A model generated the notes under the pieces. It searched no databases and was not told where the DNA came from. It was given only the letters and a program-made list of their open reading frames with translations. Positions 24,318 to 63,163 of a DNA stretch of 64,000 bases are shown in pieces (position 1 is the stretch's first letter; every line of letters begins with the position of its first letter). This DNA is from Antedon mediterranea (taxonomy: Eukaryota > Animalia > Echinodermata). The position numbers and the translations under genes were made by a program. Where the stretch lies: contig NC_092676.1 in assembly GCF_964355755.1 (NCBI RefSeq), positions 22,400,871-22,464,870 of the forward strand, in the 5' to 3' direction.

Positions 24318-24424
24318 ATCACACATGGGATCAACAAATCACACATGGGATTAACGAATCACACATGGGATCAACGAATCACACATGGGATCAACGAATC
24401 ACACATGGGATTAACAAATCACAT
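24318..24424. repeat. 20-bp tandem repeat abutting the GPCR stop codon (5 copies; 6 copies at 44953-45079)
   Basis: TCACACATGGGAT(C/T)AAC(G/A)AA repeated. Confidence 0.9.
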
Positions 24425-27400: not shown

Positions 27401-30400
27401 GTAGGTCTACTTAGTATAAAGTACGAACACGCAAAGCTACTGTCAAGTATTTATTAAATTATCATCTTTTGTTAATTGCAATCAAATCAGACAAAAATCA
27501 AACGGAAACCAAATAATCATAAGAGTCATACTGTATATAAATTATAGTGCTACTTACAAATGTGAAAGTGATGAAGCAAAAGAAGAGAAGGCATCTGGTT
27601 CAATGGTAGTTATAGCATTGTTCTGTAAATCCCTGTTGAAAGATAAATTAATAATAGACAACAGATATTGAGTAATGCATCACATTATTTAAAAAATACA
27701 TAATTTTCATTATCATACGTTAAAAAATTGTAAAAATAAAATTTTTTTTGCATAGTTAAATAAAAAACTGTTATGTTATGTTACATATAATATAGATATT
27801 AATATTAATACAGCTGTAATTTAAGAAAAATTTGTAATAAACAAAGCAATACACTTACAGTGCTTTCAATGCTGTCAAACCAGCAAATGCATCGGCTGGC
27901 AATGTACTTATTTGATTATAAGGCAACCACCTTAAATAGAAAAAGAATGCACAAAATAAGCACATGGAGTAAATACAATATAAATTATTTTTGTCTTTCT
28001 GTTTCTTCAAATAATTAAATTATCTACATCAGTAATACTACATTATAGTTATACTGCATGAATATAATTGTCAAGTTTTAAATATTATTATTGTTAATAA
28101 AATATTATTCAACAATTTAGATTAAGATTTCTTATTGTTAATATCTGACAAAAAGGATCTATGGTAGTTATAGCATTTCTCTCTAAATTCCTGTTAAAAG
28201 ATAAATTAATAAACAACATTTTATTGAGTAATGCATCACATTACTAAAAAAAATACGTAATTTTCATTATCAAGTAGAAAAACTATAAAAATAACATTTT
28301 ATTTGCATAGTTAAATTAAATAAAAATTAAATGTCATGACTTTGTTATTTTATTATTTCACTCTGTTGCCTAAAATGTTTACATTATTAGACTGCATGAG
28401 TATAGTTTCAACTCTTATACTTGAATCATTTGCATATGAAATATGAATTATAGTGTTAACTTACAGATGCCACCGTACATTAGAAGTAAGATTTCATTTA
28501 AAGTAAGATAAAATTATGTTATGTTACATATAATATAGATATTAATATTAATACAGCTTTAATTTAATTAAGAAATTAAGACAAATTTGTAATAAACAAA
28601 GCAATACACTTACAGTACTTCCAATGCTGTCAAACCAGCAAATGCATTGGCTGGCAATGTACTTATTTGATTATCATACAAGTACCTCAAATAGAAAAAG
28701 AATGCACAGAATAAGCACATGGAGTAATTACAATATCAATTATGTTTGTCTTTATGTTTCCTAATGTTTAAATTAGTAATACTACATTATAGTTACACTG
28801 CATAGTATAGTGTCAACTTTTATACTTGAATGATGTCAAAAATGCTATGTTAAAATAGAATATTGTTTTTAATTTGCAACTCAGACAAAATCACTATAAG
28901 AAATGATATTTCTAGACAAACTCACTCCAACAAATTTTAATTAATTGATTACAATTATGAAATATTATTATTAAAAAAATTATAGATTACAATACAGATT
29001 AAGATAAATTTGTAATATCTGACAAAAAGGATCTATGGTAGTTATAACATTGTTCTCTAAATTTTTGTTGAAAGATAAATATATATACCAAGTTTGATTT
29101 AAAAAATACATAATAAACAAAGCAATACACTTACAGTTCTTTCAATGCTGTCAAACCAGCAAATGCATTGGCTGACAATGTACTTATTTGATTACCAGAC
29201 AAGGACCTCAAATAGAAAAAGAATGCACAGAATAAGCACATAGAGTAATCACAATATCAATTATGTTGGTCTTTATATTTCCTAATGTTTAAATTAGTAA
29301 TACTACATTATAGTTACACTGCATAGTATAGTGTCAACTCTTATATTTGAATGATTTCAAATATACTAGTTTAAAAAGAATATAGTTTTTAATTTGTAAC
29401 TCAGACAAAATCACTACAAGAAATGTTATTTCTAGAAAAACTCACTCCAACAAATTTTAATTAATTGATTACAATTATTTCAAAGAATTACAGATTAAGA
29501 TTCTTAATAAATTTGTAATATCTGACAAAAAGGATCTATGGTAGTTATAGCATTGTTCTCTAAATTGAAGTTGAATGATAAATACAGTATATATATATAT
29601 ACAACATTTGATTTAAAAAATACATAATTTTCATTATCGTAAGTAGAATAAAAAAAAACCATTTTATTTAAAATTAAATTTCATGACTTCATTATTTTAT
29701 TATTTTACTCTGTTGCCTAAAATGTTTACATTATTAGACTGCATGAGTATAGTTTCAACTCTTATACTTGAATCATGTAAAAATAATATACCACAGTATG
29801 TTATGAAAGGATTTGTTTTCTCAGATAAATTACTGCAAACAATTTAAATTAATTGATAGAGAGAGAATATAATTTGCAACATTATTGTTAATAAAATATT
29901 ATTCCAAACAGTTGTTGATATCTGACAAAAAAATAAATAACTCGACATTCATGGTGGATGAAGTAACACTTGTTTTTAAAGTTCTTGTTATAAGATCATA
30001 TTATGAAATGATGTAATAAATAAGAATATCTTACTGTGTTAAACCATGGATTAAAGAATAGAAGGATATTCATCGACGTGAGATCAAGGGTTCCTTGACT
30101 CTCGCCGACAGAGCGCGGACCGCCCACAATGTTACAGTTTAATTAACCGCATGGTAACAACGAAACGGTCGCGTGCCTAATATATTGTTTACTGCACATG
30201 TGCAACGACATTTAACCTCTTTGGCCTCTGCCTCACGCCACTGCTGAGTATAATGTTTATTGAAAACAGTTATTAAATTACATTGTACGTTATTGTGAAG
30301 ACCCTAATGTAGGCTTACTTCATCAATATACGAAAGCCCATTAATGCCATTTTAAGTATATGTTTTTCGAACGTAATCCGTTCTAACGAATTAGTAATTC

Positions 30401-33400
30401 GTTTGAACGGATTAATAATCTGTTCAAACGAATTAGTAATCCGTTCAAACGAATTGCAACATATACAACAAGTGCCATTTAAAGAATATGTTGTAATTCG
30501 TTTCAACGGATTACTAATTTGTTTAAACAGATTAATAATCTGTTAAAACGAATTAGGAATCCGTTCAAACGGATTAGTAATTTGTTTAAACGGATTACTA
30601 ATTTGTTCAAACGAATTACTAATTCGTTCAAACGAATTACTAATTTGTTCAAACAGATTAGTAATCCGTTTAAACAAATTATTAATTTGTTTAAACAAAT
30701 TATTAATTCGTTTAAACGGATTACTAATTCGTTTGAACGAATTAGTAATTCGTTTGAACGGATTACTAATCCGTTTAAACAAATTAGTAATTCGTTTGAA
30801 CGAATTAGTAATCCGTTTAAACAAATTAGTAATTTGTTTGAACGGATTAGTAATCCGTTTGAACAAATTAGTAATCCGTTTAAACAAATTAGTAATTTGT
30901 TTGAACGGATTAGTAATCCGTTCAAACGAATTAAAACATATACCTTAAATGGCACTTGTTGTATATGTTGCAATTCGTTTGAACGGATTACTAATTCGTT
31001 TGAACAGATTATTAATCTGTTCAAACGAATTACTAATTCGTTAGAACGGATTACGTTCGAAAAACATATACTTAAAATGGCATTAATGGGCTTTCGTATC
31101 AATATACCAGATAAAATACTATATTGTTATTGGCTTAGAATTGTAGATGCTATAATTGTAATTAGTATAGGTTTCTGCCGCGATTGATCTACGCTAATGT
31201 TTTTATGACATTAAAGTAGCATTTTATGACCTGTAGTAGCCCTACATCTGAGACAATAACTATTTGTTGTCTCAGCCTACATGTAAAATTACAAAATCAG
31301 CAAGGATACTAGGCCTAGGCCTTCTAGGCTTACTAGTAAACCATATGATTTGCCGACATTGATACTGCCTAGGTAGGCCTAGGCTAATATTAAGTGTAGT
31401 AGATACAACGTGTAATCATGATCTATATACTCACCGTTGTCTTACTTCTTGTGTGAATAATAATAGGTACTTCGTTTGTTCGTGATTAAGTTTGCCATGC
31501 GTGTACTTTTCAAAACGACCGCTAGGTAACGTATCGCAACTATACATAGCCAGCCAATCCCGGATCAGGGATCGCTGTTTTCATTAAATCAGGCCCGGTG
31601 ATTGGATGTGATGTGGATGACATAACCACTTGCCAATCACCAGGCACTAAAATTTAAATATAATTACATCGATAATTAAGGAGAATTATGAAGAAACCAC
31701 TGCTTAGCCATATATTAAATACATGATTGTTCTATGTGTGGACACCGGACACGCTAACAACATACATGGTCAAATGCATAATTTAATATTCTATAGATTA
31801 ACGCAATTTTTAATGACAGAAGATGGCAGGCAAATAATGATAATTCAAATATAAAAATTGCATATTATTTTATTAATATTACCAACTACTTAAAATTACC
31901 AGTCGTAAGAAAGTGAACTTTTCGTAGTCTGATTGTTATGAAACTAAAACAGAATTGTTCAGCATTACATTTTTATTGTCAATTAATCATCGACGCAGAC
32001 ATGTCAATAGAACATTCAGACTGCGCATACGATTTGTACATGGTTACGTTTTGGTCTAAAAAAATGTAGCAGTTGATTCGCAGCGTTCTACAGAGGACCG
32101 CGGTTAGAGACACGGAGTTCAATGTTTGATTGGCAGCAGTGCTTTAGTATAGAAGCGCGTTCTAAAATCGTTTGATGTCGCCGTCGATGCATATCCTTCT
32201 AATTCTTTTATCCATGGTTAAACCTACAATGTAGATATTAATATTAATACAGCTGTAATTTAATTAAGAAATTAAGACAAATTTGTAATAAACAAAGCAA
32301 TACACTTACAATCCTTTCAATGCTGTCAAACCAGCAAATGCATTGGCTGACAATGTACTTACTTGATTAATAGACAATTCCCTCAAATAGAAAAAGAATG
32401 CACAGAATAAGCACATGGAGTAATTACAATATCAATTATGTTTGTCTTTATGTTTCCTAATGTTTAAATTAGTAATACTACATTATATTACATAGCCTAT
32501 GTAAATACGTGAACGTGATTGGTTGAAACTGCGTCACATGACTACCGCTGCGAGGATCGTAAATCGTATATATCCTCGAGAACGATGATATTGACTGAGT
32601 AATTTTCGCGTAATTATTGTGTCCCCTGTCATTAATCATATAAATTCTCGAGTTCGATGATATTGACTGTGTAATTTTCGTGTGCAACACTCGCGTTTGC
32701 CGATAAAATCTACTGGATCTTGAACTCGGGATGGAATTGTCACTCCATCACAAGACAACGCTTCAACCGCTGCGCCACGGAACTTGCTTGAAGAAATTAA
32801 TCTTTTAAACTATTTAAGCTATGCATTTATAGCGCCCTTATTTGTTATTAGTCCTCCCTAAATGTGATGAAACACCGTTTGTGATTGGTCAAAACTCACG
32901 GTAGTAACTAGTACGCGCTGAATATCCGGCGATTCGGCTCCTCGAAGAGAAGAAGACGAATTGTTTATTCGGCGTACCTGATTATAATATTATTATTAAT
33001 AGGCTTATTGATGAAAATTCTTCTGTTAATTTAAACGACCTAGGCCTAAGTGAATATTTTATTGCCAAGGAATCATTAATTAGTAATTATCTGTATATTA
33101 TTCTTCGCAAGGTAAGGTGTCTAGGCAGACTTGTTTACATACAATACAAATACTATAGGAGGCCTAGCCTAGTTTCACCCAACCCACCAGACTTGTTCTT
33201 GGCTATATAATATAACAGATATCGCCTTCTGTATCGGTTAAGTATAAGATTTGACATCCCCTCGGGAATGATATAAAGTTCTCGGGGAATATTTCCCTCA
33301 GCTGGCGCTTCGGGAAATATATATTCCCTCGAACTTAATATCATTCCCTCGGGGATGTCAAATCTTATATTTAACCTCTAAGCAGTCAATATCTGTATAA

Positions 33401-36400
33401 TAGTTACACTGCATAGTATAGTGTCAACTCTTATACTTGAATGATGTCAAATATACTATGTTAAAATAGAATATAGTTTTTAATTTGTAACTCAGACAAA
33501 ATCACTACAAGAAATGTTATTTCTAGACAAACTCACTCCAACAAATTTTAATTAATTGATTACAATTATAAAAGAGAAAATAGTTTTAAATATTATTACT
33601 AAAAAATAATTATATCAAACAATTACAGATTAAGATTCTTAATAAATTTGTAATATCTGACAAAAAGAATCTATGGTAGTTATAGCATTGTTCTCTAAAT
33701 TCCTGTTGAAAGATAAATATGTATTACATTTGATTTAAAAATAATTTTCATTATCATAAGTAAAAAAAACTATTTTATTTGTAGAGTTAAATAAAAATTA
33801 AATGTCATGACGTCATTATTTTATTATTTCACTCTGTTGCCTAAAATGTTTACATTATTAGACTACATGAGTATAGTTTCAACTCTTATACTTGAATCAT
33901 GTAAAAATAATATACTACAGTATGTTTTGAAAGGATTTGTTTTCTCAGACAAATTACTGCAAACAATTTAAATCAATTGATTGAAATATAATTTGCAACA
34001 TATTGTTTCTAAAATATTATTTCAAACAATTTTTGATATCTGAGAAAAAAAAATGATTCATGGGGGATGAGCTATGTTAAACCTACAATGTAGATATTAA
34101 TATTAAAACAGCTATAATTTAATTAAGAAAGTAAGACAAATTTGTAATAAACAAAGCAAATACACTTACAGTATTTTCAATGCTGTCAAACCAGCAAATG
34201 CATTGGCTGGCAATGTACTTATTTGATTATCATACAAGTACCTCAAATAGAAAAAGAATGCACAAAATAAGCACATGGAGTAATTACAACATCAATTATG
34301 TTTGTCTTTATGTTTCCTAATGTTTAAATTAGTAATACTACATTATAGTTACACTGCATAGTATAGTTCAACTCTTATACTTGAATGATGTCAAATATAC
34401 TAGTTTAAAAAGAATATAGTTTTTAATTTGTAACTCAGACAAAATCACTATAAGAAATGTTATTTCTAGACAAACTCACTCCAACAAATTTTAATTAATT
34501 GATTACAATTATGAAAGAGAAAATAGTTTTAAATATTATTATTAAAACAATATTATTTCAAAGAATTACAGATTAAGATTCTTTATAAATTTGTAATATC
34601 TGACAAAAAGGGTCTATGGTAGCATTGTTCTCTAAATTGCAGTGGAAATATAAATGTATATATCACATTTGATTTAAAAAAAAATTAAAATTGCACTTGT
34701 ATAGTTAAATCAAATAAAAATTAAATGTCATGACTTCATTATTTTATTATTTCACTCTGTTGCCTAAAATGTTTACATTATTAGACTGCATGAGTATAGT
34801 TTCAACTCTTATACTTGAATCATGTCAAAATAATATACCACAGTATGTTATGAAAGGATTTTTTCTCAGACAAATTACTGCAAACAAATTTAAATTAATT
34901 GATTGAAAGAGATTATAATTTGCAACATTTTTAATAAAATATTATTTCAAACAGTTGTTGAAATCTGACAACAAAATAAATAACTCATTCATTCATGTAA
35001 TTGTATTGATATATGATGAAATATGACCTGAAATATATGAGTACCAAATTTGGTTTAATTATGCTTGTCAAAATATGATTACAAACATGATTTTGTTAAA
35101 TAGACCACGTAATTTTTGATTGCGCACCACGAAAACATAATCACATCGATTCCTGGATGAATTAACACTTGTTTTAAAGTTCTTGTTATAAAATGATGTT
35201 ACTATGTTAAACCTACAATGTAGATATTAATACAGCTGTAATTTAATTAAGAAATTAAGACAAATTTGTAATAAATAAATAAACAAAGCAAATGGTATAC
35301 CAATGCTGTCAAACCAGCAAATGCATTGGCTGGCAATGTACTTATTTGATTACAATACAAGCCCGGCCCTCCTATAAAAATGCACAGAATGAATAAGCAT
35401 ATGGAGTAAATACCGTACAATATCAATTATTTTTGGTTTTTTTGTTTCCTCAAATAATGTTTAAATAATCTATATTAGTAATACTACATTATTAGTATAA
35501 ATATCAATATTTTAAATAAAAAAGCACTGCAAGAAATTTCAATAAATTGATTGCAATTATGAAAGAGATAATAGTTTTCAATATTAATACTAATAACATA
35601 TTATTTCAAACAATTTTGGCACAAAAAAAAGTACAGGGTACAACAATTTGCATTTTGTACAACACAGTGACTGAAAAAAACAACTTTAGCAGGATATAAA
35701 AACAGTGGCTATGCACAACATTTTGCCTTGTACAAAAACAGTTGTTGATTGGTACAAAAACACTTGTTAGGAACATAGCGGTGGCAGGGTACAACTTGCG
35801 TTATACAACACGGTGACTGGAAACAAACTTAAACGGTAGCAGGATATAGAAACGGTGGCAGGATACAAAAGCAGTAGGGTATAAAATCTGCATTGTACAA
35901 AAACGGTGGCAAGGGTACATAAACTTGGGGTTGTACAACAGTGGCTGAGAACAAAAACAGTGGCAGGATATAAAAACTTGGGTTGTACAACAGTGGCTGA
36001 GAACAAAAACAGTGGCAGGATATAAAAACTTGGGTTGTACAACAGTGGCTGAGAACAAAAACAGTGGCAGGATATAAAAACTTGGGTTGTACAACAGTGG
36101 CTGAGAACAAAAACAGTGGCAGGATATAAAAACTTGGGTTGTACAACAGTGGCTGAGAACAAAAACAGTGGCAGGATATAAAAACTTGGATTGTACAACA
36201 GTGGCTGAGAACGAAAACAGTGGCAGGATATAAAAACTTGGGTTGTACAACAGTGGCTGGGAACAAAAACAGTGGCAGGATATAAAAACTTGGGTTATAC
36301 AACAGTGGCTGAGAACAAAAACGGTGGCAAGGGTACACAAACTTGGGTTGTACAACACTGGCTGAGAACAAAAACAGTGGCAGGATATAAAAACTTGGGT

Positions 36401-37688
36401 TGTACAACAGTGGCTGAGAACAAAAACAGTGGCAGGATATAAAAACTCCTGTTAGTTCTACAAAATACAAGGATGGCAAAGGGATTGGTGGTTGCCTCAA
36501 GCAAGGCACAATTCATTCATTAAGCCTACTTACAATGTTGTTATTGGATTATGATTAGGATATAAAAACTTGGGTTGTACAACAGTGGCTGGGAACAAAA
36601 CCTTGGCAAGATATATTAGGAAAACAAAATGGTAGCGTACAAAAACTGAAACAGTAGCATGGTAACTAACCATAGCAGGGCTAAAAAAAATAGAGGTAAC
36701 CCCCTGTTAGTTCTTCAGAAGCGAGGATGAGAAAGGGTTTGGCACAATTCATTCATTAAGCCTACTTACAATGTTGTTATTGGATTATGATCATTGTACT
36801 GAGCAAGTTGTGTCTGTATGGTAGTATTCCATGTATCACAATGAGTATAATTTTGCAAATGGTTACAATTACAAAGTCTTGGGCATACACTTTTTTCTGT
36901 TAAAAATATAAAAATATTTTAAAATGAGTAAATAATAAAAAGTAACTTATTTTATTTAGTTATCACAGTATAAAACATACTAAATCAGCAGTCAGAAAAC
37001 GAAGTGGAGAAAAATATATTAAAAACAAATACAAATTAAAATGTATAAAAGTTGCATATATAATACTTGCTACTACATTTACTTGTCTATCAATATAGAA
37101 TATGTGTGATTTTAATATAGATCAAAAGGGAAATTACTAAAAAAATGGTAATGGCTGCATACAACAACAAAAATAAGCAAAAAGCTAAATCAAAACGGTT
37201 TTGTAAAATAGCCAGAAAGAAATTACAGAGCTTACAGGTAACATTACGCCTTCCTTAGTAGTGTAGGGGTACATAGAGATAAGTAAGAATACAAGGTAGA
37301 CAAGAGCTGCTGATTATACTAAACTAAAACATATAGCCATTTCCTTCGTTGAATAAAGCAATTTGCACTAGGAAAAAGTGACATTTAAGTACAAGCACGT
37401 GCCAGGATTTGTGCTTCTTTTTTCCCCACAAATAGGGGGAAAAGGTGTAAGTGTAACAACTGAAAAACATCAACATAATTTGCCTGCTGGCTAGCAGAGA
37501 ACTTCCACTGCTGTTTCTTGTTTGAAAAAGACACTTTTCAGGGGGAAAGGGTAATAAAATTTTAATTAATACAATTTTTTTAATGTTTGAAAATAAGATG
37601 GTAAATATATCTTACCATTCACATCGGAACTATAACAGCTAGAAAACAACAATGGTACCAACAGCACGAGGGTGTTAAAGATAGACAT
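24419..37688 (-). CDS. LRR-containing rhodopsin-class GPCR, copy A (LGR type C/GRL101-like hinge and 7TM, no LDLa); 580 aa if all cassettes are included
   Basis: Exons: 37688-37616 signal peptide (MSIFNTLVLLVPLLFSSCYS); 36896-36770 LRRNT (CPRLCNCNHLQNYTHC); five 72-nt LRR cassettes at 34241-34170, 32381-32310, 29206-29135, 28685-28614 and 27930-27859; LRR exons 27632-27558 and 26513-26442; and 25454-24419 hinge (YSDFSRLCC..C..DAFASCEDLL) plus 7TM (NLAASD, SIDR, CLALPL, FTDFCCWGP, NSSVNPYLY). The total of 1743 nt is in frame. Confidence 0.9.
25737..25912. repeat. 24-bp minisatellite (about 7 copies in copy A, about 1.5 copies at 46390 in copy B)
   Basis: GTACAACTTATTATTATCTCATAC repeated. This explains the periodic spurious ORFs. 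Confidence 0.9.
27176..27368. mobile_element. Harbinger-type palindromic MITE; duplicate at 47720-47912
   Basis: TIR AGCCTGTTTTCCTGTC, TTA TSD. It is present in both paralogs. Confidence 0.8.
30045..32216. mobile_element. Non-autonomous P-like TIR element inserted in an LRR-unit intron
   Basis: TIR CATGGATTAAAGAATAGAAGGATAT..CATCGAC / GTCGATGCATATCCTTCTAATTCTTTTATCCATG, 7-bp TSD GTTAAAC. Sister units show the empty site TGTTAAACCTACAATG. Confidence 0.8.
30329..31098. mobile_element. Nested IS3EU-like foldback element with 21-bp subrepeats
   Basis: TIR TACGAAAGCCCATTAATGCCATTTTAAG, 6-bp TSD TCAATA, internal AACGAATTAGTAATCCGTTCA-type repeats. Confidence 0.8.
32486..33402. mobile_element. Unclassified ~0.9-kb element, copy 2, inserted in an LRR-unit intron
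   Basis: Homologous to 9119-10033. It interrupts the unit motif TACTACATTATAGTTACACTGC. Confidence 0.75.
35290..35372 (-). pseudogene. Broken LRR cassette exon
   Basis: The core LYCNQISTLPANAFAGLTAL is intact, but the GTAAG donor region is lost and the acceptor side is replaced by GGAGGGCCGGGC, which is out of phase. Confidence 0.8.
35630..36600. repeat. 52-bp minisatellite (about 10 homogeneous copies at 35920-36447, decayed flanks)
   Basis: AAAAACTTGGGTTGTACAACAGTGGCTGAGAACAAAAACAGTGGCAGGATAT repeated. Confidence 0.92.
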
Positions 37689-40600
37689 CTTTGTACACAA
37701 ATTTAACGATATCGGAGTGTTACTAGTTAACTTTACTTCTGCGAGTCAGCTCCGATTTGTGAGAATTAAACGTTTTGTTGTTTAAAGAATACGTTTAGCA
37801 CTTCTAGTGAGTTTTAATAATTTAGACAAATAATTTCACCAGATGTATTCAGGTTTTGCTGATAGGAGTCCTAATGGTTCATCTTAATATTCAATTGTTA
37901 TTTGAAAATATTAATATTAATGTCAAAGAGGTTACACCACCCTGGTAATATGCAGTAATAACTTTTTACCCAAAATAATAATATAGTTATTAAAGTTTTC
38001 ACATAATAATAAATTGTATTACTTATATTAAGTCCATGTTGGGAGACGATTAATTAAACTAATCTAACATTTTACATGTTTCTATTAATTACTTGTGTCA
38101 ATTGTTTGTTTTTCTAAAGAATAAATAATAATTAATTTTATTAAGACCAATAAATTTCTCCAAAAGTCCTTTCTTCCACTTGCCACATTAAAACTGACTT
38201 TTGGTAGCTCATCCAGTAAACATAAGGTCTTATTAGGTCTGTATTTCTAATATGGGTAAAAATATATATATATATATTGGCATATATGGCGTTTCATATG
38301 TATAGTAGATCTTTTTTCCAGACCAAAATCGAAATGCTGACTGGTGGACGATAACATAAAAAAGATGAAAACTGCAGGCCTTGAGGAAAGTATAATTAAA
38401 CATAGCAACTACTACTGTACAAGCAGCAATGAATATCATAAGGGGTGCTGAGATCAGCATTCAGTTCTGTCGATAAGTAATTCAGTTGTTTTAACTTTGA
38501 AAATCAGCTAAATTGATGAAAACTACACATTTTGTTTACATTACTTGTAGCATTTCCTGTGAATTTTAATAATTTAGATAAATAATTTCATCAGATGTAT
38601 CTGTGTTTTTCTGAAAGGAGTCTTAATGGTTCGTTTTAATATTAAATTATATTAAAAATATTAAAGGTACCAATTTGATAGAGATTACATCACAATGAGT
38701 ACAGTATAACGTTTGTCCCAAACATAAATGTTATGAAAATAGACATTTTCAATAAAATTTATTATGTGCTAATAATAATTAGCGACACAATTAAATGTTT
38801 TCGTAGTTATAAAAAGTTTCCATCTACTCTTTTAATTGCTTAGGCCTACATTATTTTTATCGTATATTTTGTATTTATAGTAGTTTTTCTGATAAATAAA
38901 GAATAATTGATTTTAATAATAGAAAAATGAATATTTTTTAGATAAAAGTGTCCTTCTGCTCGCCACTGACTGTTGGTTACTGCTCATCAACTATTCGTCC
39001 ACAACTTAGAAGATTGCAGCAAACAGTATTCTAAATTTGTTCTTTCTTTATATTTTGATATTTTAGCACAAAGTTTCACTTACCAGAAACAATTAGGTCT
39101 ATGGCTACTGAAAAACAGTCAATAATAATTTGTTCTCTCATTTTTACAATATTTTATATATTTGTTGTGTCATTTTATTCGGCTTTTTTATTTGTATGCT
39201 ACAGTATATTTAAGATGTTTTCATTTTGATCATTCTTTTCGGTATGTTTTATATTCTTAGGACCCCTTTTATTTTTTCACCAGACAACAAAGTCTTAAAG
39301 ATAAACATGTTCTTACCTAACTTTGTACCAATATCTGACAGTTCAATTGTTTAAAGATTACCTACCATAGCGTTTCTAGTAATTGTGTTAATAATTTAGA
39401 TAAATCACTTCACAAGATGCATCCAATGAAGAGTTTCACTGATGGAGTAGTAATCATATATTTAATTAGAATGAAAATTTATCTGGTTTGGTAAAAGAGA
39501 TGGAGATAGATACTTGCACTTTGATTCACAAGTTAACATATATCTCTCTTAACATTTAACTGTTTACATTCAAAGTAATATTAAACGTATAAAGTTTGTG
39601 TTAGCTCATGTTTCCCTCTATTATTGATTTCATCGTTCTTATTTTTTTCTTAGGTTTTTTTTTTTTTGATAAAGAAAACTAGATTCGAATGAAGAATAAT
39701 ATGATTTTAAATAGGATCCCTCCCGGTCACCTCATTCAAACTGGCTGCGGGCGTTGGCAGGATTTTTAAAAAGGAGAAGATTTGAGAGGAGTGGAGCACA
39801 TAATCGGCTGAGTACAGGCTATAGTGGCAGTATTTACCAATCGCACATGTGTGTTATTTCTCTTAAAAATATGAAGAATTTCACATTTAAGGAAATTTTT
39901 TCAATTACAAGAGTAAATGTTTCTCTTAGCTGAAGTGTAATGGTGAACGGTCACAGGACCGACAAGTTCTGTAGCCTTTAAACATCATATTTTGGAGGAT
40001 CATAATTACCTCGGTAAACGCAGAAGAAAACTTGTTTAACTTAATTATTCGGTAACTTTATTCCTCTAACTCATTGAATATTTATGAGGCGTGACGCAAG
40101 TGTGGGCATCATATGACCATATATCAGTAGACGCGGAAGAAAGCAATGAATTATTTAATATCTTTATTCCTCGCTTAATGAATATGTATGAGGCGTGATG
40201 CAAGGGTGGACAGTCATATGATCGTACATCAGTATTTTCCTACAGTAGGTAGGTTTTAGATAGAAAACATAATTATGCAGTTTTTTCATTTAACTTAAAG
40301 ATATATTATCCCCTGAATTTTAATGTCACATAATAGTTATTCCCTTTGACCAAAAACTTGATAGAAAAAAAAAAACTTACTGAATAAAATTTTATTTTAT
40401 TTAAAGCAAAACATTGTCTGTCAGACAATTGGTTTTTGGCTGAATTTAACTGTTTATTTTTTCTTTTTATAAAGTGCAAACATAATTTGTTTTTGTTTCT
40501 TTTTCTACGGAAATGATTACCTTTATTAAAACTACAAAATGGCCTATTTGATTTATTAATCTTCATTTTTCATGTTTTTCAGGGACAGTACATCTTTAAT

Positions 40601-41113
40601 AATATCGAATGTTTATTACCTGATGTAAATATTGACCCAATTCCTTCATAGCTTAAAACAAGCATTATTAAAAAAATATCCATATAAAAATTAACATACT
40701 ACACATTTACAACTTTTGAGAACAACAGACCTCAGAACTTGGAAAAATAAATATCGGAAAGTTTATGAAAGCATGTCAAAACTATAGAGGGCATTATAAC
40801 ATTTTGTTTTGTTAAGATAGTGGCAACTGCACTATAATAGTAAACATGGGTATGGCAGGTGTGCCAAAGGCTGATAATGCGGTGCCAACTGAATTCAAAG
40901 TATTAAACAACAGATGAATTTATTTAGTTAGTATCTAGAGACGTTTGCCGGAATGGCTGCCAATGGGATTTCACTCATGCGAAGTGTATAAGAGATAGGA
41001 GTTTCATATCTTGCGCCACTTCGCACGGCGCTATAGTATCTTTGGTGTGTGCCGCTCAACCAGCAACTCGCTTTAAAATAAATTGCTGCCACATCTTAAT
41101 TTTATTTTTACAG

Positions 41114-48000: not shown

Positions 48001-51000
48001 AATTATCATCTTTTGTTAATTGCAATCAAATCAGACAAAAATCAAACGAAAACCAAATAATCATAAGTAGTCATCTGTATATAAATTTTAGTGCTACTTA
48101 CAAATGTGAAAGTAATGAAGCAAAAGGAGAGAATGCATCAGGATCTATGGTAGTTATAGAATTGTTATTTAAACCCCTGTTGAAAGATAAATTAATAATA
48201 GACAACAGATATTGAGTAATGCGTCACATTATTAAAAAAATACATAATTTTCATTATCATACGTTAAAAAATTGTAAAAATAAAATTTTATTTCCATAGT
48301 TAAATAAAAAAAAAAATTAAATTTCATGACTTTGTTATTTTATTATTTAATTCTGTTGCCTCAAATGTTTACATTATTAGACTGCATGAGTATAGTTTCA
48401 ACTCTTATCTTGTCAAAATAATATACCACAGTATATTATGAAAACCTTTTTTTTTCTCAGACAAATTACTGCAAACAATTTAAATTAATTGATTGAGAGA
48501 GATTATAATTTGCAACATTATTGTTAATAACATATTATTTCAAAAAGTTATATCTGAGAAAAAATAAATAACTCATTCATTTAAAGTAAGATAAAATTAT
48601 GTTATGTTACATATAATATAGATATTAATATTAATACAGCTGTAATTTAATTAAGAAATTAAGACAAATTTGTAATAAACAAAGCAATACACACTTACAG
48701 TATTTTCAATGCTGTCAAACCAGCAAATGCATTGGCTGACAATGTACTTATTTGATTATTATTCAAGTACCTCAAATAGAAAAATAATGCACAAAATAAG
48801 CACATGGAGTAATCACAATATCAATTATGTTTGTCTTTATGTTTCTTCAACTGTTTAAATTATCTACATCAGTAATACTACATCATAGTTATACTGCATG
48901 AATATATTGTCAAGTTTTAAATATTATTATTGTTAATAAATATTCTTCAAACAATTTAGATTAAGAATTCTTATTAATTTTTAATATTTGACAAAAAGGA
49001 TCTATGGTAGTTATAGCATTCTTCTCTAAATTCCTGTTGAAAAATAATAATAGGCAACATTTTATTGAGTAATGCATCACATTATCTAAAAAAATACGTA
49101 ATTTTCATTATCATAAGTAGAAAAACAGTAAAAATTAAATTTTATTTGCATAGTTCAATTATATAAAAATTAAATTTCATGACTTCATTATTTTATTATT
49201 TCACTCTGTTGCCTAAAATGTTTACATTATTAGACTGCATGAGTATAGTTTCAACTCTTATACTTGAATCATGTCAAAATAATATACTACAGTATGTTAT
49301 GAAAAGATTTTTTTCTCAGAAAAATTACTGCAAACAATTTAAATTAATTGATTGAGAGAGATTATAATTTGAAACATTGTTAATAAAATATTATTTCAAA
49401 CAATTTTTGATATCTGAGAAAAAAATTAACTCATTCAATTAAAGTAAGATAAAATTAAAATTATGTTATGTTACTTTGTTAAACCTACAATGTAGATATT
49501 AATATTAATAAAGCTGTAATTTAATTAAGAAATTAAGACAAATTTGTAATAAACAAAGCAATATACTTACAGCCATCCCAATGCTGTCAAACCAGCAAAT
49601 GCATTGGCTGGCAATGTACTTATTTGATTATCAGACAACAACCTCAAATAGAAAAATAATGCACAAAATAAGCACATGGAGTAAATCTATATTATAAGTG
49701 AGAGAGTTTGTCTGTTTGTCTGTTTGTTCGTTATACAAAATTTTGTTACTGCACATAATCTTACATATGGGGTATCAAAATGACCGCAATTGTACCGGGA
49801 ATGTTCTAAGCTATATTTCAACATCATCCGCCACCTAGGATCCAAGTTAGGGACCAAAATGTGGTCAAAACCCCCACTTTCGATGTTTGTTCGTTATAAA
49901 AATTTCTGTGTCTGCACGTAACCATACGTATGGGGTATCAAAATGATGGCAATTGTACCCGGAAGGTTTTAAACTACATTTAAAAAAATTCCCCCGACTC
50001 CTGGGGTTTTTGTGGAATGGGTGGGGGGGGGGGGGTGGTTGTGTGGTGGTTTGTGATGTCATTTTTGCTAGGGCTCGGGGTTGTAGGCTATCGAATTGTA
50101 AAATTATACTACAAAAGTTTTACAGTATTTGAATTATCCTCAGCAAGGCGTTTGGGGAAATATAGATATAGCTATACATATTTCATTCATTAAACAATAT
50201 GACACCTATTCAATTACACATTTAGCAAAGTACTTTAACCATATCCAGCTATTTGTTGGTCTCTTGGATTGCCTCATTACAGACATCCATACCTGTGTGA
50301 ACATACACATGTTGTTTACTGTTACTGTGTTCAACTACATCACCAATCCTCCAAGGAAAAAAACGTACATTGTGGGAGAGTGGGGTTGGGAGATAGGGTT
50401 TGGGAGTTTGGTTTCAGGAGAGAGTGGGGATTTTGCTTACACCAGAATTGTGGTTGGAAACTTTTAAAGTATTTAATCATCCCTGGGAAGCGGATGGGAG
50501 TTTGGGGTGGGGATGTACATCTAGGCCTATCACCATGACCGAAACTGTATTTGGAATGTTTTAAACTACATTTGAAAACTGCCACTGAGGGATTATGGGT
50601 TGGGAGTGATAATAATATAAATTGTACTGGAACCGGCTTCAACAGATCACCCAGTGTATCTGGCGTGTGTTTTTTGTAGAGGGAGGAGGAGCGAAAATAC
50701 TAGCGTAATGAAGTAGCCTATATGATTGGATTGTACTAGGAAAAGTTACTAAATTTGAACTGTCCAGGGGAGGAGTTAAGGTTTGTTGATGGTGGCTGGG
50801 GTGGTGAAAGGAGAAAGATGGCTGGGTGCCCGCAGTATCTAAATTACAAATTTTAATTATCAGCCAATATGACACCTATTCATTTACACAATTTACAACG
50901 TACTACAACCATTATTAGACCCATCGTAGTTATGAATACTCCTCTCAATTCGAAGCTTAGGTTGAATTGAATTTGTCCATCACTGGGAAGATTTTGTTTT

Positions 51001-54000
51001 TAAGAAAGAGTATGGGGTGTTGTTGAGGGGTCGATGTTGGTGAGTATAGACAGATACTGGCGTCGGGTGTTATGTACTGAGAAGGCTGTAAACTAATTTT
51101 GAAACCCGCCCTGGGGCGGGTATAATTGCTAGTATAATATAAATTATTTTTGTCTTTATGTTTCTTCAACTGTTTAAATTATCTACATCAGTAATACTAC
51201 ATCATAGTTATACTGCATGAATATATTGTCAAGTTTTAAATATTATTATTGTTAATAAAATATTCTTCAAACAATTTAGATTAAGAATTCTTATTAATTT
51301 TTAATATTTGACAAAAAGGATCTATGGTAGTTATAGCATTCTTCTCTAAATTCCTGTTGAAAAATAATAATAGGCAACATTTTATTGAGTAATGCATCAC
51401 ATTATCTAAAAAAATACGTAATTTTCATTATCATAAGTAGAAAAACAGTAAAAATTAAATTTTATTTGCATAGTTCAATTATATAAAAATTTAATTTCAT
51501 GACTTCATTATTTTATTATTTAATTCTGTTGCCTCAAATGTTTACATTATTAGACTGCATGAGTATAGTTTCAACTCTTATCTTGTCAAAATAATATACC
51601 ACAGTATATTATGAAAACCTTTTTTTTTCTCAGACAAATTACTGCAAACAATTTAAATTAATTGATTGAGAGAGATTATAATTTGCAACATTATTGTTAA
51701 TAACATATTATTTCAAAAAGTTATATCTGAGAAAAAATAAATAACTCATTCATTTAAAGTAAGATAAAATTATGTTATGTTACATATAATATAGATATTA
51801 ATATTAATACAGCTGTAATTTAATTAAGACATTAAGACAAATTTGTAATAAACAAAGCAATACACTTACAGTGTTCCCAATGCTGTCAAACCAGCAAATG
51901 CATTGGCTGACAATGTACTTATTTGATTAACAGACAACCACCTCAAATAGAAAAAGAATGTACAGAATAAGCACATGGAATAATTACAATATCAATTATT
52001 TTTGTCTTTATATTTCCTAATGTTTAAATTAGTAATACTACATTATAGTTACACTGCATAGTATAGTGTCAACTCTTATACTTGAATGATGTCAAATATA
52101 CTATGTTAAAATAGAATATTGTTTTTAATTTGTAACTCAGACAAAATCACTACAAGAAATGATATTTCTAGACAAACTCACTCCAACAAATTTTAATTAA
52201 TTGATTACAATTATGAAAGAGAAAATAGTTTTAAATATTATTATTAACAAATTATTTTTTCAAACATATACAGATTAAGATTTTTTATAAATTTGTAATA
52301 TCTGACAAAAAGGATCTATGGTAGTTATAACATTGTTCTCTAAATTGCCGCAGTTGAAATATAAATATATCACATTTGATTTTCATTATTGTAAGTAGAA
52401 AAAAAAATTGTACTTGTATAGTTAAATCAAATAAAAATTAAATTTCATGACTTCATTATTATTTTAATATTTCACTCTGTTGCCTAAAATGTTTACATTA
52501 TTAGACTGCATGAGTATAGTTTCAACTCTTATACTTGAATCATGTCAAAATAATATACTACAGTATGTTATGAAAGGACTTTTTTCGCAGATAAATTACT
52601 GCAAACAATTTAAATTAATTGATTGAGAGAGATTGTAATGTATTGTTAATAAAATATTATTTCAAACAGTTGTTGATATCTGACAACAAAATAAATAATT
52701 AATTCATGGTGGATGAATTAACACTTGTGTTTTAAGTTATTGTATAAGATCATATTATGAAATGATGTAATAAATAAGAATATCTTAGTTACTATGTTAA
52801 ACCTACAATGTAGATATTAATATATATACAGCTGTAATTTAATTAAGAAATTAAAGACAAGTTTGTAATAAATAGAGTAAGTAAACAAAGCAATACACTT
52901 ACAGGGATTCCAATGCTGTCAAACCAGCAAATGCATTGGCTGGCAATGTACTTATTTGATTATTATGCAACCACCTCAAATAGAAAAAGAATGCACAGAA
53001 TAAGCACATGGAGTAATCACAATATCAATTATTTTGTCTTTCTGTTTCTTCAAATAATTAAATTATCTACATCAGTAATACTACATTATAGTTATACTGC
53101 ATGAATATAATTGTCAAGTTTTAAATATTATTATTGTTAATAAAATATTACTCAAACAATTTAGATTAAGATTTCTTATTAATTGTTAATATCTGACAAA
53201 AAGGATCTATGGTAGTTAGGCCTATAGCATTTCTCTCTAAATTCCTGTTGAAAGATAAATTAATAAACAACATTTTATTGAGTAATGCATCACATTACTA
53301 AAAAATACATAATTTTCATTATCAGAAGTAGAAAAACTGTAAAAATAACATTTTATTTGCATAGTTAAACTAAATAAAAATTAAATTTCATGACCTCATT
53401 ATTTTAATATTTCACTCTGTTGCCTAAAATGTTTACATTATTAGACTGCATGAGTATAGTTTCAACTCTTATACTTGAATCATGTCAAAATAATATACTA
53501 TAGTATGTTATGAAAGGACTTTTTTCGCAGATAAATTACTGCAAACAATTTAAATTAATTGATTGAGAGAAATTGTAATGTATTGTTAATAAAATATTAT
53601 TTCAAACTGTTGTTGATATCTGACAACAAAATAAATAATTAATTCATGGTGGATGAATTAACACTTGTTTTTAAAGTTCTTGTTATAAGATCATATTATG
53701 AAATGATGTAATAAATAAGAATATCTTACTGTGTTTAACATACAATGTAGATATTAATATATATATACAGCTGTAATTTAATTAAGAAATTAAGACAAAT
53801 TTGTAATAAACAAAGCAATACAATTACAGGGATTCCAATGCTGTCAAACCAGCAAATGCATTGGCTGACAATGTACTTATTTGATTATTATGCAAGTGCC
53901 TCAAATAGAAAAAGAATGCACAGAATAAGCACATGGAGTAATCACAATATCAATTATGTTTGTCTTTATGTTTCCTAATGTTTAAATTAGTAATACTACA

Positions 54001-57000
54001 TTATAGTTACACTGCATAGTATAGTGTCAACTCTTATACTTGAATGATGTCAAATATACTATGTTAAAATAGAATATAGTTTTTAATTTGCAACTCAGAC
54101 AAAATCACTACAAGAAATGATATTTCTAGACAAACTCAGTCCAACAAATTTTAATTAATTGATTACAATTATGAAAGAGAAAATAGTTTTAAATACTATT
54201 ATTAAAAAATTATTATAATCAAACAATTACAGATTAAGATTCTTAATAAATTTGTAATATCTGACAAAAAGGATCTATGATAGTTATAGCATTGTTCTCT
54301 AAATTCCTGTTGAAAGATAAATATTTATTACATTTTATTTGTAAAAAAAACTATTTTATTTGTATAGTTAAATAAAAATTAAATTTCATGACTTCGTTAT
54401 TATTTTATTATTTCACTCTGTTGCCTAAAATGTTTACATTATTATACTACATGATTATAAGTTTCAACTCTTATACTTGAATCATGTCAAAATAATATAC
54501 TACAGTATATTATGAAAACCTTTTTTTTTCTCAGACAAATTACTGCAAACAATTTAAATTAATTGATTGAGAGAGATTAAAATTTGCAACATTATTGTTA
54601 ATAAAATATTATTTCAAAAAGTTATATCTGAGAAAAAATAAATAACTCATTCATTTAAAGTAAGATAAAATTATATGTTATGTTACATATAATATAGATA
54701 TTAATATTAATACAGCTGTAATTTAATTAAGAAATTAAGACAAATTTGTAATAAACAAAGCAATACACTTACAGGGTTTCCAATGCTGTCAAACCAGCAA
54801 ATGCATTGGCTGACAATGTACTTATTTGATTATCATACAAGTACCTCAAATAGAAAAAGAATGTACAGAATAAGCACATGTAGTAAATACAATAAAAATT
54901 ATTTTTGTCTTTATGTTTCTTCAACTGTTTAAATTATCTACATCAGTAATACTACATCATAGTTATACTGCATGAATATATTGTCAAGTTTTAAATATTA
55001 TTATTGTTAATAAAATATTCTTCAAACAATTTAGATTAAGAATTCTTATTAATTTTTAATATCTGACAAAAAGGATCTATGGTAGTTATAGCATTCTTCT
55101 CTAAATTCCTGTTGAAAAATAATAATAGGTAACATTTTATTGAGTAATGCATCACATTATCTAAAAAAATACGTAATTTTCATTATCATAAGTAGAAAAA
55201 CAGCAAAAATTAAATTTTATTTGCATAGTTCAATTAAATAAAAATTAAATGTCATGACTTCATTATTTTATTATTTCACTCTGTTGCCTAAAATGTTTAC
55301 ATTATTAGACTGCATGAGTATAGTTTCAACTCTTATACTTGAATCATGTCAAACTAATATACCACAGTATGTTATGAAAGGATTGTTTTCTCAGACAAAT
55401 TACTGCAAACAATTTAAATTAATTGATTGAGAAAGATTATAATTTGCAACATTGTTAATAAAATATTATTTCAAACAATTGCTGAAATTTGACAACAAAT
55501 AAATAACTCATTTAAAGTGAGATAAAATTATGTTATGTTACTATGTTAAACAAACAATATAGATATTGACCGTCTGAGAAAAGAACATCGCGGTATGGTG
55601 GACAAGATCGATGACCTCGAACAGTACAGTAGGCGCAACTGCCTACTAATTCACGGATAGTCTGGGTTCCAGACGGAGTTTTGTCTTAATATTAGTAAAA
55701 AGATAAATATTTTGGCACATATGGCGTTTCATACGTTTACTACTTGATTTTGGATACTCCGTCTGGGGAAACACGCACAAGTCACGTGGTTTGACACCAA
55801 GAATTCTTGGTGCATACGATTATCCGGTTGACTAGTTTCAGCTGCATGCGATTGGCTACTCACTCGTACACTATTTTAATATTCATATTTCAAAGACTCA
55901 ACATCTAAGATGATGCGCATGCGCTATTTTACGTTTAGACAATGTGTACTTGGGTACATCATGGAGATACCTCCATGGGTACATTGATGAAAGTTTCTGA
56001 AGGCTAGAAATGATTTTATCCCTGTCTGGTAATTATTTGATGGGATTTTTCCCAAGAACATGAAAACTCGTCTTGATATGATAGGCTACCTTCTCCGCAA
56101 ATCAAACATTGGTTGAATGGATCATTTATTACGCGGAGATATTTTAATTTAATTCCCACCCAGACCCTGTCCTGTTCTGTATGGTGGTGTAGCCCTGTTG
56201 TGTGCCGGTGATGGTATGTAGGCCTACCTTATTGGCGTTTTATTCGGCAGGTCATACGTGCGAGTTGAGTAGGACCTACGAAGGAGGCCTAGGCCAAGGA
56301 CTAAACAATTAATAAACAAAACAACTTGGCAACACGATTTTATATTTCAACAGCCTCGATCGTACATTCAGCACTGTTCGTATAGTACTCGATCTTTTTT
56401 ATTTTGAAACAAAATGATCATTGGTTGATTCGAAATCCATATTTACATACCGCCCGCCCCATATAGCCAAATACGGTATCGTAACCTACTTCATTCTTAT
56501 CGGATGCTTGCGGTCTGCAAATCGATTTCTATACGTGTTTCACAAGTCTGTATTTTCAGACAAAAATCGCGGTCGAAATAAAAACAAATAAATAAAAAAA
56601 AAGACAATACAGACTTGGAGTGTATTTTCAGACAAAAATCGCGGTCGAAATAAAAACAAATAAATAAAAAAAAAGACAATACAGACTTGGAGCAAGTCTA
56701 ATTCACGGAGTACCCGAAACGGCAAATGAAAACACAGATACCTTAACTCTAGATATTATAACATCACGCATCTGCGAAGATATGGAACTAATCGAGATTG
56801 ACCAAACTCACCGACTTGGACGGAAGAGAGTACTCCATAACAACAAAACATGCAGCAGTTCTAAACCGAGGCCTCCGATTATCGTAAAATTTTCCACATA
56901 CCGCGCACGAGCAGAAGTATTTCGCAACAAGAAATTGCTTAAAAATTCTTCTTACTCTATAACCGAGAACTTAACACCTTCTCGCATGACCCTCCTGCGC

Positions 57001-57289
57001 GAAGCGGGCGCACATGCCGCTGTGGAAGCCGCGTGGTCGCTCGATGGACGGATCAACTGCCTTCCGACCTCCGTAATTTCTAGATGTAATTAAAACATCA
57101 ACTATCAATTAATATTGCTTGTATGTTCCGCTTTGCGGATTCAGCTACAGTAAACCTTGATTGTTCCTGTCTGATCCCAAAATTATTTATATTACATTAC
57201 TCCTGCTGTTGTCGTTTATCGTCATCATCATCTTTTATTATTATTATTATTAATGTTATTATTATTATTATTATTAGTAGGCTATTATA

Positions 57290-57327
<38 letters not shown>

Positions 57328-62596: not shown

Positions 62597-62649
<53 letters not shown>

Positions 62650-63000
62650 TTTCTACTACTTTAATTAATATTTAATTATTGTCTATTGTAATTGATACAA
62701 TAATTAGTGTATTTTGTACTGGTGAAACCAGGCTTAAAGCTCTATATTGAGCTTATTTGGTCTTTTCCAGGCTTTGCATTTTTTTATTTAATACTTATTA
62801 TGTAAAAATATTAAGTTTGATGCATTGTGAAATAAAAACGAACGAACGAACGAATATTAATATTAATACAGCTGTAATTTAATTAAGAAATTAAGACAAG
62901 TTTGTAATAAACAAAGTAATACACTTACAGTCCTTTCAATGCTGTCAAACCAGCAAATGCATTGGCTGGCAATGTACTTATTTGATTACCATCCAAGTAC
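45074..63000 (-). CDS. LRR-containing GPCR, copy B; 5' exons lie beyond the window
   Basis: 72-nt cassettes at 63000-62929, 54844-54773, 53899-53828, 52974-52903, 51941-51870, 49642-49571 and 48770-48699; LRR exons 48176-48102 and 47023-46952; hinge plus 7TM exon 46109-45074, open and nearly identical to copy A. Confidence 0.88.
49686..51132 (+). mobile_element. Non-autonomous Helitron in an LRR-unit intron
   Basis: 5' TCTATATTATAAG, 3' hairpin ACCCGCCCTGGGGCGGGT followed by CTAG. Inserted between A and T of GAGTAAA^TA with no TSD. Confidence 0.85.
55658..56700. mobile_element. Non-autonomous AcademH-like DNA transposon inserted in LINE ORF1
   Basis: TAG..CTA termini (TAGTCTGGGTTCCAGAC / AGACTTGGAGCAAGTCTA) and a 9-bp TSD ATTCACGGA (55649-55657, 56701-56709). 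Confidence 0.7.
57327..58640 (-). mobile_element. Non-autonomous Helitron inserted in the (TTA)n tract between LINE ORF1 and ORF2
   Basis: Minus strand 5' TCTATATATAAA; 3' hairpin GATGGTACGCGAGCGAAGCGAGCGTACCATC followed by CTAG^T. Confidence 0.88.
59160..62462 (+). CDS. LINE ORF2: PHD-like zinc finger, APE endonuclease and reverse transcriptase (1100 aa)
   Basis: N-terminal CxxC..CxxC..H..C..CxxC; endonuclease motifs SETWL, GGGVALY, YRPP, GDFN, IDNIF and TDHFP; RT motifs YRPISILP, QYGFR, FLDLSKAFD, GVPQGSILGP, FADD and FLGV. Confidence 0.97.
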   Translation: MYTRSMSCVSCDKCIRVATYVNCDICNKPSHATCASFPYSNSLKFYCCKCLEETLPFNHIIDDDEFKHEIKQLNNDHTINYSNLQSLLFNPFDLNDDNDYDYINEITNHNDKCEYYLSDSFNNKIINTNSNLSILHMNSRSLIKNFKSITNYLLTLNHKFQIIGFSETWLDNTNNVPSPLTHIEGYTMIKSNRAGKRGGGVALYISDELNFKIRSDINLPTNQNYDSLFIEIESITKNSIVGIIYRPPNSSFQPFINNISNCIDSITKEKKQLFVCGDFNLDLIKHSTHNYTNEFLNTMYSASLYPLIDKPTRITTKTSTLIDNIFTNVLDQKITPGILFNDITDHFPVFQILNNSHSNQIKNLKCNKKHYSRKINQENIASLGINLMNTNWDDVYQNNSANESYNIFLDRFSSLYDTHLPKTRTKINKRKLCKPWITKGIIKSINTRNKLYKKYIKTPNMINKTNYITYRNKLTRLIRTSCKQHYTNKFNDYKNNIKKTWNIINNILCKNTTKTLPSYFTDNGTKITDPSQISNKFNRYFTDIGPKLSSKISATHGNFTDYLRNPTQNSIFFQPTSGKEILEIISNLKNSKSAGLNDIEPTIIKEIGPFITRPLTHIFNLSLTNGVFPSSLKIAKVIPIHKKNDSHSFENYRPISILPCFSKILERLIYNRLYNFLSSHKSFHDNQYGFRPKHSTDLAILDIQSKISNALSKNHHTIGLFLDLSKAFDTINHTILLTKLSHYGIRGTPLSLLSNYLQNRQQITSFGSYSSEVLPITCGVPQGSILGPLLFLIYVNDIINATKSFEYVLFADDTNIFSSHPDYNTLTRIFNKEIKHISHWLKLNRLSLNINKTEYIHFSPNRTCNDNQNTIHIENTPIKRVTYSQFLGVTIDNNLNWKTHITNIANKISKNIGVLKKLKYILPSNILFSLYNTLILPYLSYCNIAWGITDTKNKTLCPWASTHISKLDKLFKLQKRAIRICTNSHYIAHTKSLFFKLNTLNIFDINKLQIATFMHRYSNNQLPNIFKHFFIKNNEFHNYNTRNTNNYATINLTHNTIRNSIKYHGPLVWNNLSQSLLNTNNLNTFKSKYKQFLLSQYRSY

Positions 63001-63163
63001 CTCAAATAGAAAAAGAATGCACAGAATAAGCACATGGAGTAATCACAATATAAATTATGTTTGTCTTTATGTTTCCTAATGTTTAAATTAGTAATACTAC
63101 ATTATAGTTACACTGCATAGTATAGTGTCAACTCTTATACTTGAATGATGTCAAATATACTAT

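Follow-up and report, generated by a model that had tools for sequence, protein, structure and literature searches.

The window analysed here, 64,000 nucleotides of contig NC_092676.1 from the crinoid Antedon mediterranea, is AT-rich animal DNA (31.7% GC) with two genes, copies A and B, in tandem on the minus strand, both of which encode a GPCR (G-protein-coupled receptor) with leucine-rich repeats (LRRs) and a seven-transmembrane (7TM) domain. The two genes have between them 12 intact cassette exons of 72 nt. The variation among these cassettes is concentrated on five codons for exposed residues, and 11 of the 12 share a GAG acceptor. The hypervariable exposed codons are the stronger finding and what makes the array interesting, and the GAG pattern is real, but as a single inherited event it has modest weight alone. 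From comparison of the sequences, the shared GAG was probably copied from one founder exon and then carried along and tolerated, with a probability of roughly 0.65.

When the 12 cassettes are compared, their variation falls on codons 1, 3, 4, 22 and 23: 24 of the 27 minimum changes lie within these 15 of 69 nt, a concentration reached in 0 of 200,000 random placements. The diversity among the copies is 0.32 in the head of the cassette, 0.47 in its tail and 0.017 in its core, with 0.04-0.15 in the flanking introns. According to a structural model, the variable codons take the x positions of the motif xxLxLxxN, on or beside the strand; the concave face is an established ligand-binding surface in VLR and PGIP, as stated in the accessible part of PMC3341825. 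The same positions have the highest entropy across the 11 repeats of a paralog, P0255. There is no stop in any variable codon, and the framework Leu and Asn are fixed in all 12 cassettes. From a fixed LRR framework combined with variable exposed codons follows that the GAG cassettes are likely translated, and the excess of variation at the exposed codons over that in the introns would suggest selection for new binding surfaces. In the 51-nt core (34183-34228 in cassette A1), 0 of 17 third positions vary across the 12 copies, which is below the introns, and homogenisation and an exonic splicing element are the candidate causes. Related cores are very abundant among contigs of DNA and RNA alike, with 164-212 contigs from runs X3 and X5, and a search of metagenome contigs for the exact core pattern gave 0 matches.

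The sequence TTTTTCTATTTGAG has 11 matches on the minus strand of the window and 0 on the plus strand, and after each come G, an exon of 72 nt and a GTAAGT or GTAATT donor, the donor being GTAAGT in 11 of the 12 intact cassettes. It agrees with the earlier note on this DNA that GAG precedes 11 cassettes with no other AG nearby upstream (the nearest is 42-62 nt distant in all 12), that AAG occurs only at the last cassette of copy A (A5, first base 27930, below the start of the region which that note had delimited), and that the two genes have CAG (5) or TAG (2) at their remaining seven acceptors. The cassette acceptors are, in short, RAG in 12 of 12 cases and the others YAG in 7 of 7. The 11 acceptors of a neighbouring housekeeping gene, taken as a control with exons chosen by eye and an open joined frame, are TAG (9), CAG (1) and AAG (1), with GAG in none.

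That GAG is a weak acceptor, as the same note had held, is supported by the accessible parts of PMC2018619 and PMC3095350, where it is the weakest competitor, and the first AG past the branch point is, in the part of PMC12081236 consulted, normally used unless a stronger AG lies within ~5 nt. All 12 cassettes have YTNAY at -27 and a pyrimidine tract of 77-82%, and the next AG downstream of the acceptor is 20-24 nt away. Because the GAG is the first AG past a branch-point-like motif and a pyrimidine tract, and has no near rival, the scanning model would make these sites likely usable. Inside the exons, all 12 cassettes have AAG in frame at +24 and CAG at +35. Use of the +24 AAG would leave a 48-nt exon, and the rows listed (4 of joints, 7 of letters) include no such joint; these tables are partial, and the contigs behind them show presence only and drop variants.

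The exons and related features, in the order of transcription within each copy, are the following.

37616..37688, minus strand: copy A exon 1, 73 nt, with start codon, signal-peptide-like (by eye), ending in phase 1
36770..36896, minus strand: copy A exon 2, 127 nt, Cys-rich LRRNT-like cap, CAG acceptor, no Pfam match
35300..35371 (approximate), minus strand: broken 13th cassette of 68 or 71 nt, out of frame through a 4-nt insertion and a damaged donor
34170..34241, minus strand: cassette A1, GAG acceptor
32310..32381, minus strand: cassette A2, GAG acceptor
29135..29206, minus strand: cassette A3, GAG acceptor
28614..28685, minus strand: cassette A4, GAG acceptor
27859..27930, minus strand: cassette A5, AAG acceptor
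27558..27632, minus strand: copy A 75-nt LRR exon, CAG acceptor; the duplicated unit includes a 5' stub of it
26442..26513, minus strand: copy A last 72-nt LRR exon, TAG acceptor
24419..25454, minus strand: copy A hinge and 7TM exon, CAG acceptor; 7tm_1, E 1e-30
62929..63000, minus strand: cassette B1, GAG acceptor
54773..54844, minus strand: cassette B2, GAG acceptor
53828..53899, minus strand: cassette B3, GAG acceptor
52903..52974, minus strand: cassette B4, GAG acceptor
51870..51941, minus strand: cassette B5, GAG acceptor
49571..49642, minus strand: cassette B6, GAG acceptor
48699..48770, minus strand: cassette B7, GAG acceptor
48102..48176, minus strand: copy B 75-nt LRR exon, CAG acceptor; donor spliced in runs X1 and X2
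46952..47023, minus strand: copy B last 72-nt LRR exon, TAG acceptor; the introns on either side are spliced in runs X1 and X2
45074..46109, minus strand: copy B hinge and 7TM exon, CAG acceptor
28150..55108, minus strand: decoy CAG acceptors within introns, seven in all, with first bases at 55108, 54306, 53244, 51353, 49033, 33702 and 28190

Copy A is complete, with a signal-peptide-like exon, a Cys-rich cap, five cassettes, LRR exons of 75 and 72 nt and a hinge-7TM exon. Its 10 exons join to a frame of 580 aa with no internal stop, and it has the features of an LGR (a rhodopsin-type GPCR that contains LRRs) in a single frame: signal peptide (judged by eye), LRR ectodomain, hinge and 7tm_1. 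Copy B has at least seven cassettes and extends beyond the end of the window, so that its 5' end lies outside. The cassette numbers are thus unequal, five and a dead one in A and at least seven in B, and the 3' blocks of the two copies differ by ~2-3%; A and B may be two tandem genes or two haplotypes joined in tandem. The decoy CAG sites are 5' stubs of the 75-nt exon, which have no donor of their own and meet a stop within ~20-26 codons. From the seven intronic stubs follows that the duplicated unit ran from mid-intron through the cassette and into the next exon. These stubs, the out-of-frame 13th cassette, the +24 AAG and the hypervariability of the strand residues had all escaped the earlier note. 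The 3' end of exon 2, together with its donor, occurs a second time at 36500-36556, ~240 nt downstream of the real one and next to a 52-nt tandem array, as a possible rival 5' splice site.

The preferred explanation of the shared GAG assumes that an intron-exon unit of ~0.9 kb was duplicated repeatedly and that the acceptor of the founder was spread with it. The cassette units are 70-99% alike in register, introns included, and since all 12 acceptors lie in one family of repeated units, they are not independent. At -3 the 12 copies have 11 G and 1 A. Across the stretch -40 to -4, 31 of 37 positions show no variation and 6 do, and 34 have at most one deviant. The G at -3 needs no special explanation, its conservation being no higher than that of the positions beside it. 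Among related units, A at -3 is found in 11 contigs of DNA run X3 (depth 421.9 of 717.4), in 7 contigs of DNA run X5 (depth 161.1 of 1007.9) and in 1 contig of run X1; these counts come from public contigs aligned on cassette A1, in a table that lacks the variant at -24 known from the window and is therefore incomplete. A more distant intron lineage ends in TAG (consensus of 2 contigs, agreement 0.77). The G at -3 is accordingly not specially preserved, though there may be a leaning to purines, and inheritance from the founder unit, which the earlier note had offered as a fallback, is the better supported reading from the conservation at -3 and the A in related units. In a tree of the units no branch reaches 95 or more, and the order of duplication is not recoverable.

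If the cassettes arose in this manner, their diversity would arise chiefly in the germ line, where units are gained, lost and probably exchanged and point changes are added, and phase symmetry would allow units to be inserted or removed. Skipping of some exons is likely, as in other LRR genes, as a by-product rather than a programme. The likely role of the receptors would be that a variable outside ligand, microbial, non-self or chemical, is recognised and signalled through the 7TM domain.

Several observations limit this picture or weigh against it. The exposed codons have a nonsynonymous diversity (pN) of 0.52 and a synonymous diversity (pS) of 0.18, to be compared with 0.021 and 0 elsewhere; the excess of pN speaks for the picture, but this pS comes from just 3.2 sites and the cassette copies are not independent. 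The invariant third positions of the core may be splicing elements under selection rather than a product of plain drift. In the same incomplete table of contigs, the listed units with this intron include no CAG or TAG row at -3, and AAG also ends a second intron lineage (consensus of 4 contigs); purines only at -3 together with a second AAG lineage would fit selection for a weak purine site. Among the rows listed there is no junction between two window cassettes, and the use of the window's GAG sites is something that we infer and do not observe directly.

What the RNA can say depends on runs X1 and X2, which are taken as RNA from their spliced joints only, none being recorded as such. The last two introns of the gene are spliced out in X2 (depth 82.9) and X1 (22-32), and contigs of X3 and X5 continue unspliced through both. 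The cassette-to-cassette rows from RNA sum to 72 nt in 7 of the 7 listed, which means that cassettes of the family are used in exactly 72-nt register. Eight cassette heads could be read from RNA contigs; none of them matches any of the 12 in the window, and 3 match the paralogs P0250/P0247. That one tail is joined to many heads is uninformative, since cassette tails are shared. The long single contigs in X3 and X5 were considered as a sign of one gene copy per animal, an interpretation that was dropped because contigs lose variants. In run X2 there is also an unspliced exon-donor-intron contig identical to A1 (126 nt, depth 13; around 34095-34198), with no depth upstream of the acceptor. Read-through at the donor of any cassette leads to Leu and then a stop (12 of 12); such read-through could possibly give secreted ectodomain forms, or be plain pre-mRNA.

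To see what skipping would do, consider copy A, where all 32 subsets of the five cassettes translate without a stop, in agreement with the claim of the earlier note that 72-nt cassettes of phase 2-2 can be skipped in frame. With skipping, the number of distinct forward junction strands would rise from 4 to 10 in A and from 6 to 18 in B. In the predicted structure of the P0255 array (single sequence, LRR pLDDT ~70-90) the strand is at residues 41-45 and then every 24 residues, and the exon junction, placed at 42/43 by the shared 24-residue register, would split it, as that note had also proposed. In-frame skippability with a split beta-strand is, by the accessible parts of PMC6642158 and PMC11378527, general to LRR exons.

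As an alternative, selection could have kept the weak purine acceptors GAG and AAG so that cassettes are frequently and randomly skipped, with many isoforms and new junction strands as a result and with the intronic CAG stubs adding competition. The open frame of all subsets, the contrast between RAG cassettes and YAG constant exons, the restriction to G or A in the related units listed and the weakness of GAG as a competitor all accord with it, as do two annotated isoforms of an Anneissia japonica paralog, X1 (485 aa) and X2 (461 aa), which differ by exactly one 24-residue repeat in the same register. Splicing of this kind is moreover reported for brown-algal ROCO (PMC11378527, in part) and NLRP3 (PMC6642158, in part). 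Yet one founder explains the pattern with a -3 position that is no more conserved than its neighbours, the distant unit has TAG, and the remaining splice signal of the cassettes is strong. No skipping junction of the window genes is found among the junction rows listed, and the depths of the junctions (40-81, with 83 for the backbone) could just as well come from linear splicing of alleles or paralogs. Selection for weak acceptors therefore appears rather unlikely. Distinctly less probable is its extension to anticipatory recognition by splicing, where weak GAG/AAG and decoy CAG sites would create a different subset of cassettes in each cell, with new junction strands and soluble ectodomains from read-through. 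If true, it would mean an anticipatory recognition repertoire run through a GPCR in an echinoderm.

The GAG cassettes could, conversely, be mostly not spliced in at all, and be a silent reservoir or decaying copies behind a short expressed product, with variable ends that gene conversion exchanges with those of expressed paralogs. For both window genes the public models are indeed 7TM-only, of 306 aa and identical to the window's 7TM exons, none of the RNA heads comes from the window, and one cassette is already dead. However, 12 cassettes are intact, with fixed Leu and Asn and no stop in the hypervariable codons, and the public models also miss the CAG and TAG exons that are spliced in X1 and X2, and hence are incomplete; the missing heads are to be seen in the light of contigs that drop variants and of partial junction tables. 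We regard this possibility as very unlikely, and copying from one founder remains the reading that we prefer. Several paralog models (among P0213, P0253, P0214, P0247 and P0250) carry odd inserts between repeats, which suggests that automatic annotation fails on the cassettes of this family.

The best matches to the 7TM exon are proteins of crinoids that carry the name GRL101-like. In a quick 7TM tree of 69 rows, some of which may be alleles or partial models, both copies fall in an Antedon clade of 30 rows (support 100), sister to an Anneissia clade of 10 rows (support 90), and both clades lie within a crinoid clade of 43 rows (support 100), where the other three rows (P0003, P0004 and P0006) carry LDLa. 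The tree omits the isoform or short rows P0261, P0264, P0266 and P0268 and its set has no Lymnaea GRL101; a grouping with GRL101-like receptors at the deeper branches is tentative. Copy A has no LDLa-like exon between the signal peptide and the LRRs, and the Pfam lists checked for clade members are also without LDLa; from these sequences, the family has probably lost LDLa, with a separate expansion in each of the two lineages. One GRL101 gene is reported in crinoids, with no further LGRs of its kind, in the accessible part of PMC8286064. The literature searched, mostly open-access and with supplements excluded, gave no description of this crinoid family or of GAG acceptors in LRR arrays, and when the LRR part of P0001 was used as a protein query, mostly unrelated LRR proteins came back.

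Other elements lie in and around the two genes. In the B1-B2 intron, antisense to the receptor, there is an intact LINE-like frame of 1100 aa for endonuclease and reverse transcriptase (59160-62462, plus strand; RVT_1 E 3e-39), and a 141-aa frame at 56668-57093 has no Pfam match. The A2-A3 intron contains a 772-nt perfect-fold-back element (30328-31099), which has arms of 386 nt that are 91% complementary with no spacer, and which is made of 21-nt palindromic repeats. The gene used as control is a splicing-factor gene, which we take to be SF3A1-like, and its eleven exons (1030-12367, minus strand) join in one open frame. An insertion of ~920 nt at 9112-10033 recurs at 32479-33402 with 85% identity. 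A long inverted pair at 19954-21514 (19989-20562 against 20877-21514, 85%), with tandem repeats of 20, 40 and 52 nt, is probably a fold-back transposon.

A large and fast-diversifying crinoid family of LRR-GPCRs, in which public models drop or garble the cassettes, would be a new candidate recognition system. The 11 near-identical GAG acceptors and their one AAG sibling make a natural series for the effect of -3 in an invertebrate, and the same series bears on the question whether selection maintains weak acceptors in LRR arrays or simply tolerates them.

Among known systems, arthropod Dscam1 has arrays of exons for immunoglobulin domains, from each of which one exon is chosen with the help of docking/selector pairing. 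The likeness is that tandemly duplicated exons are able to diversify a surface receptor; the difference is that the choice there is one-of-N, while the cassettes here appear to be additive. Of the Dscam-like combinatorial splicing suggested in the earlier note the in-frame precondition stands, but the label is poor, since Dscam picks one exon per array. Cassette-to-cassette junctions in the RNA of the family, though not from window cassettes, argue against a strict one-of-N choice. In each region, the 25 longest inverted repeats (out of 183 and 145) showed no docking/selector-type pairing, a weak test in which the list for region A was filled by one palindromic array. The VLR of lampreys and hagfish are built from 24-residue LRR modules with a variable concave face and are assembled somatically in DNA. 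The modules and the variable face have their likeness here, but the window cassettes are ordinary exons, with no sign of assembly in somatic cells. A germline gene of the VLR type is incomplete and is filled from flanking cassettes in somatic DNA; copy A is complete in the germ line, and its cassettes are spliceable.

NLRP3 and other human LRR genes also have frame-preserving LRR exons with borders at a fixed place in the beta-sheet, the skipping of which yields shorter folded domains, but they have few isoforms and no recent array of near-identical cassettes (PMC6642158, in the part available). Octopus adhesion GPCRs with LRRs were not taken as a match, since no selected sites are given in the accessible part of PMC6408891. 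The Type C LGRs, GRL101 (C2) and the relaxin receptors (C1), likewise combine an LRR ectodomain, a Cys hinge and a rhodopsin-type 7TM domain (PMC4079206 and PMC8286064, both in part). Copy A is an LGR, but it lacks the several LDLa of GRL101 proper; it also differs from GRL101 in having many paralogs and near-identical repeats with hypervariable faces in place of a fixed hormone-binding surface, and the insulin-like peptide ligand of GRL101 is itself put forward as a hypothesis in the consulted part of PMC8286064.

By analogy, the window arrays would work most like those of the brown-algal ROCO proteins, for which the accessible parts of PMC3341825 and PMC11378527 describe arrays in which every LRR is a single 72-bp phase-2 exon, exons are born and lost, sites on the concave face are under positive selection, several splice variants exist and an immune role is proposed. 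The window genes have the 72-nt phase-2 LRR exons with gain and loss, and variation on residues that are modelled on the concave face. The ROCO proteins are cytosolic ROC-COR GTPases from an unrelated lineage, and the window genes encode 7TM receptors. The crinoid family would thus converge on brown-algal ROCO arrays and on VLR-type surfaces, and yet signal through a 7TM domain.

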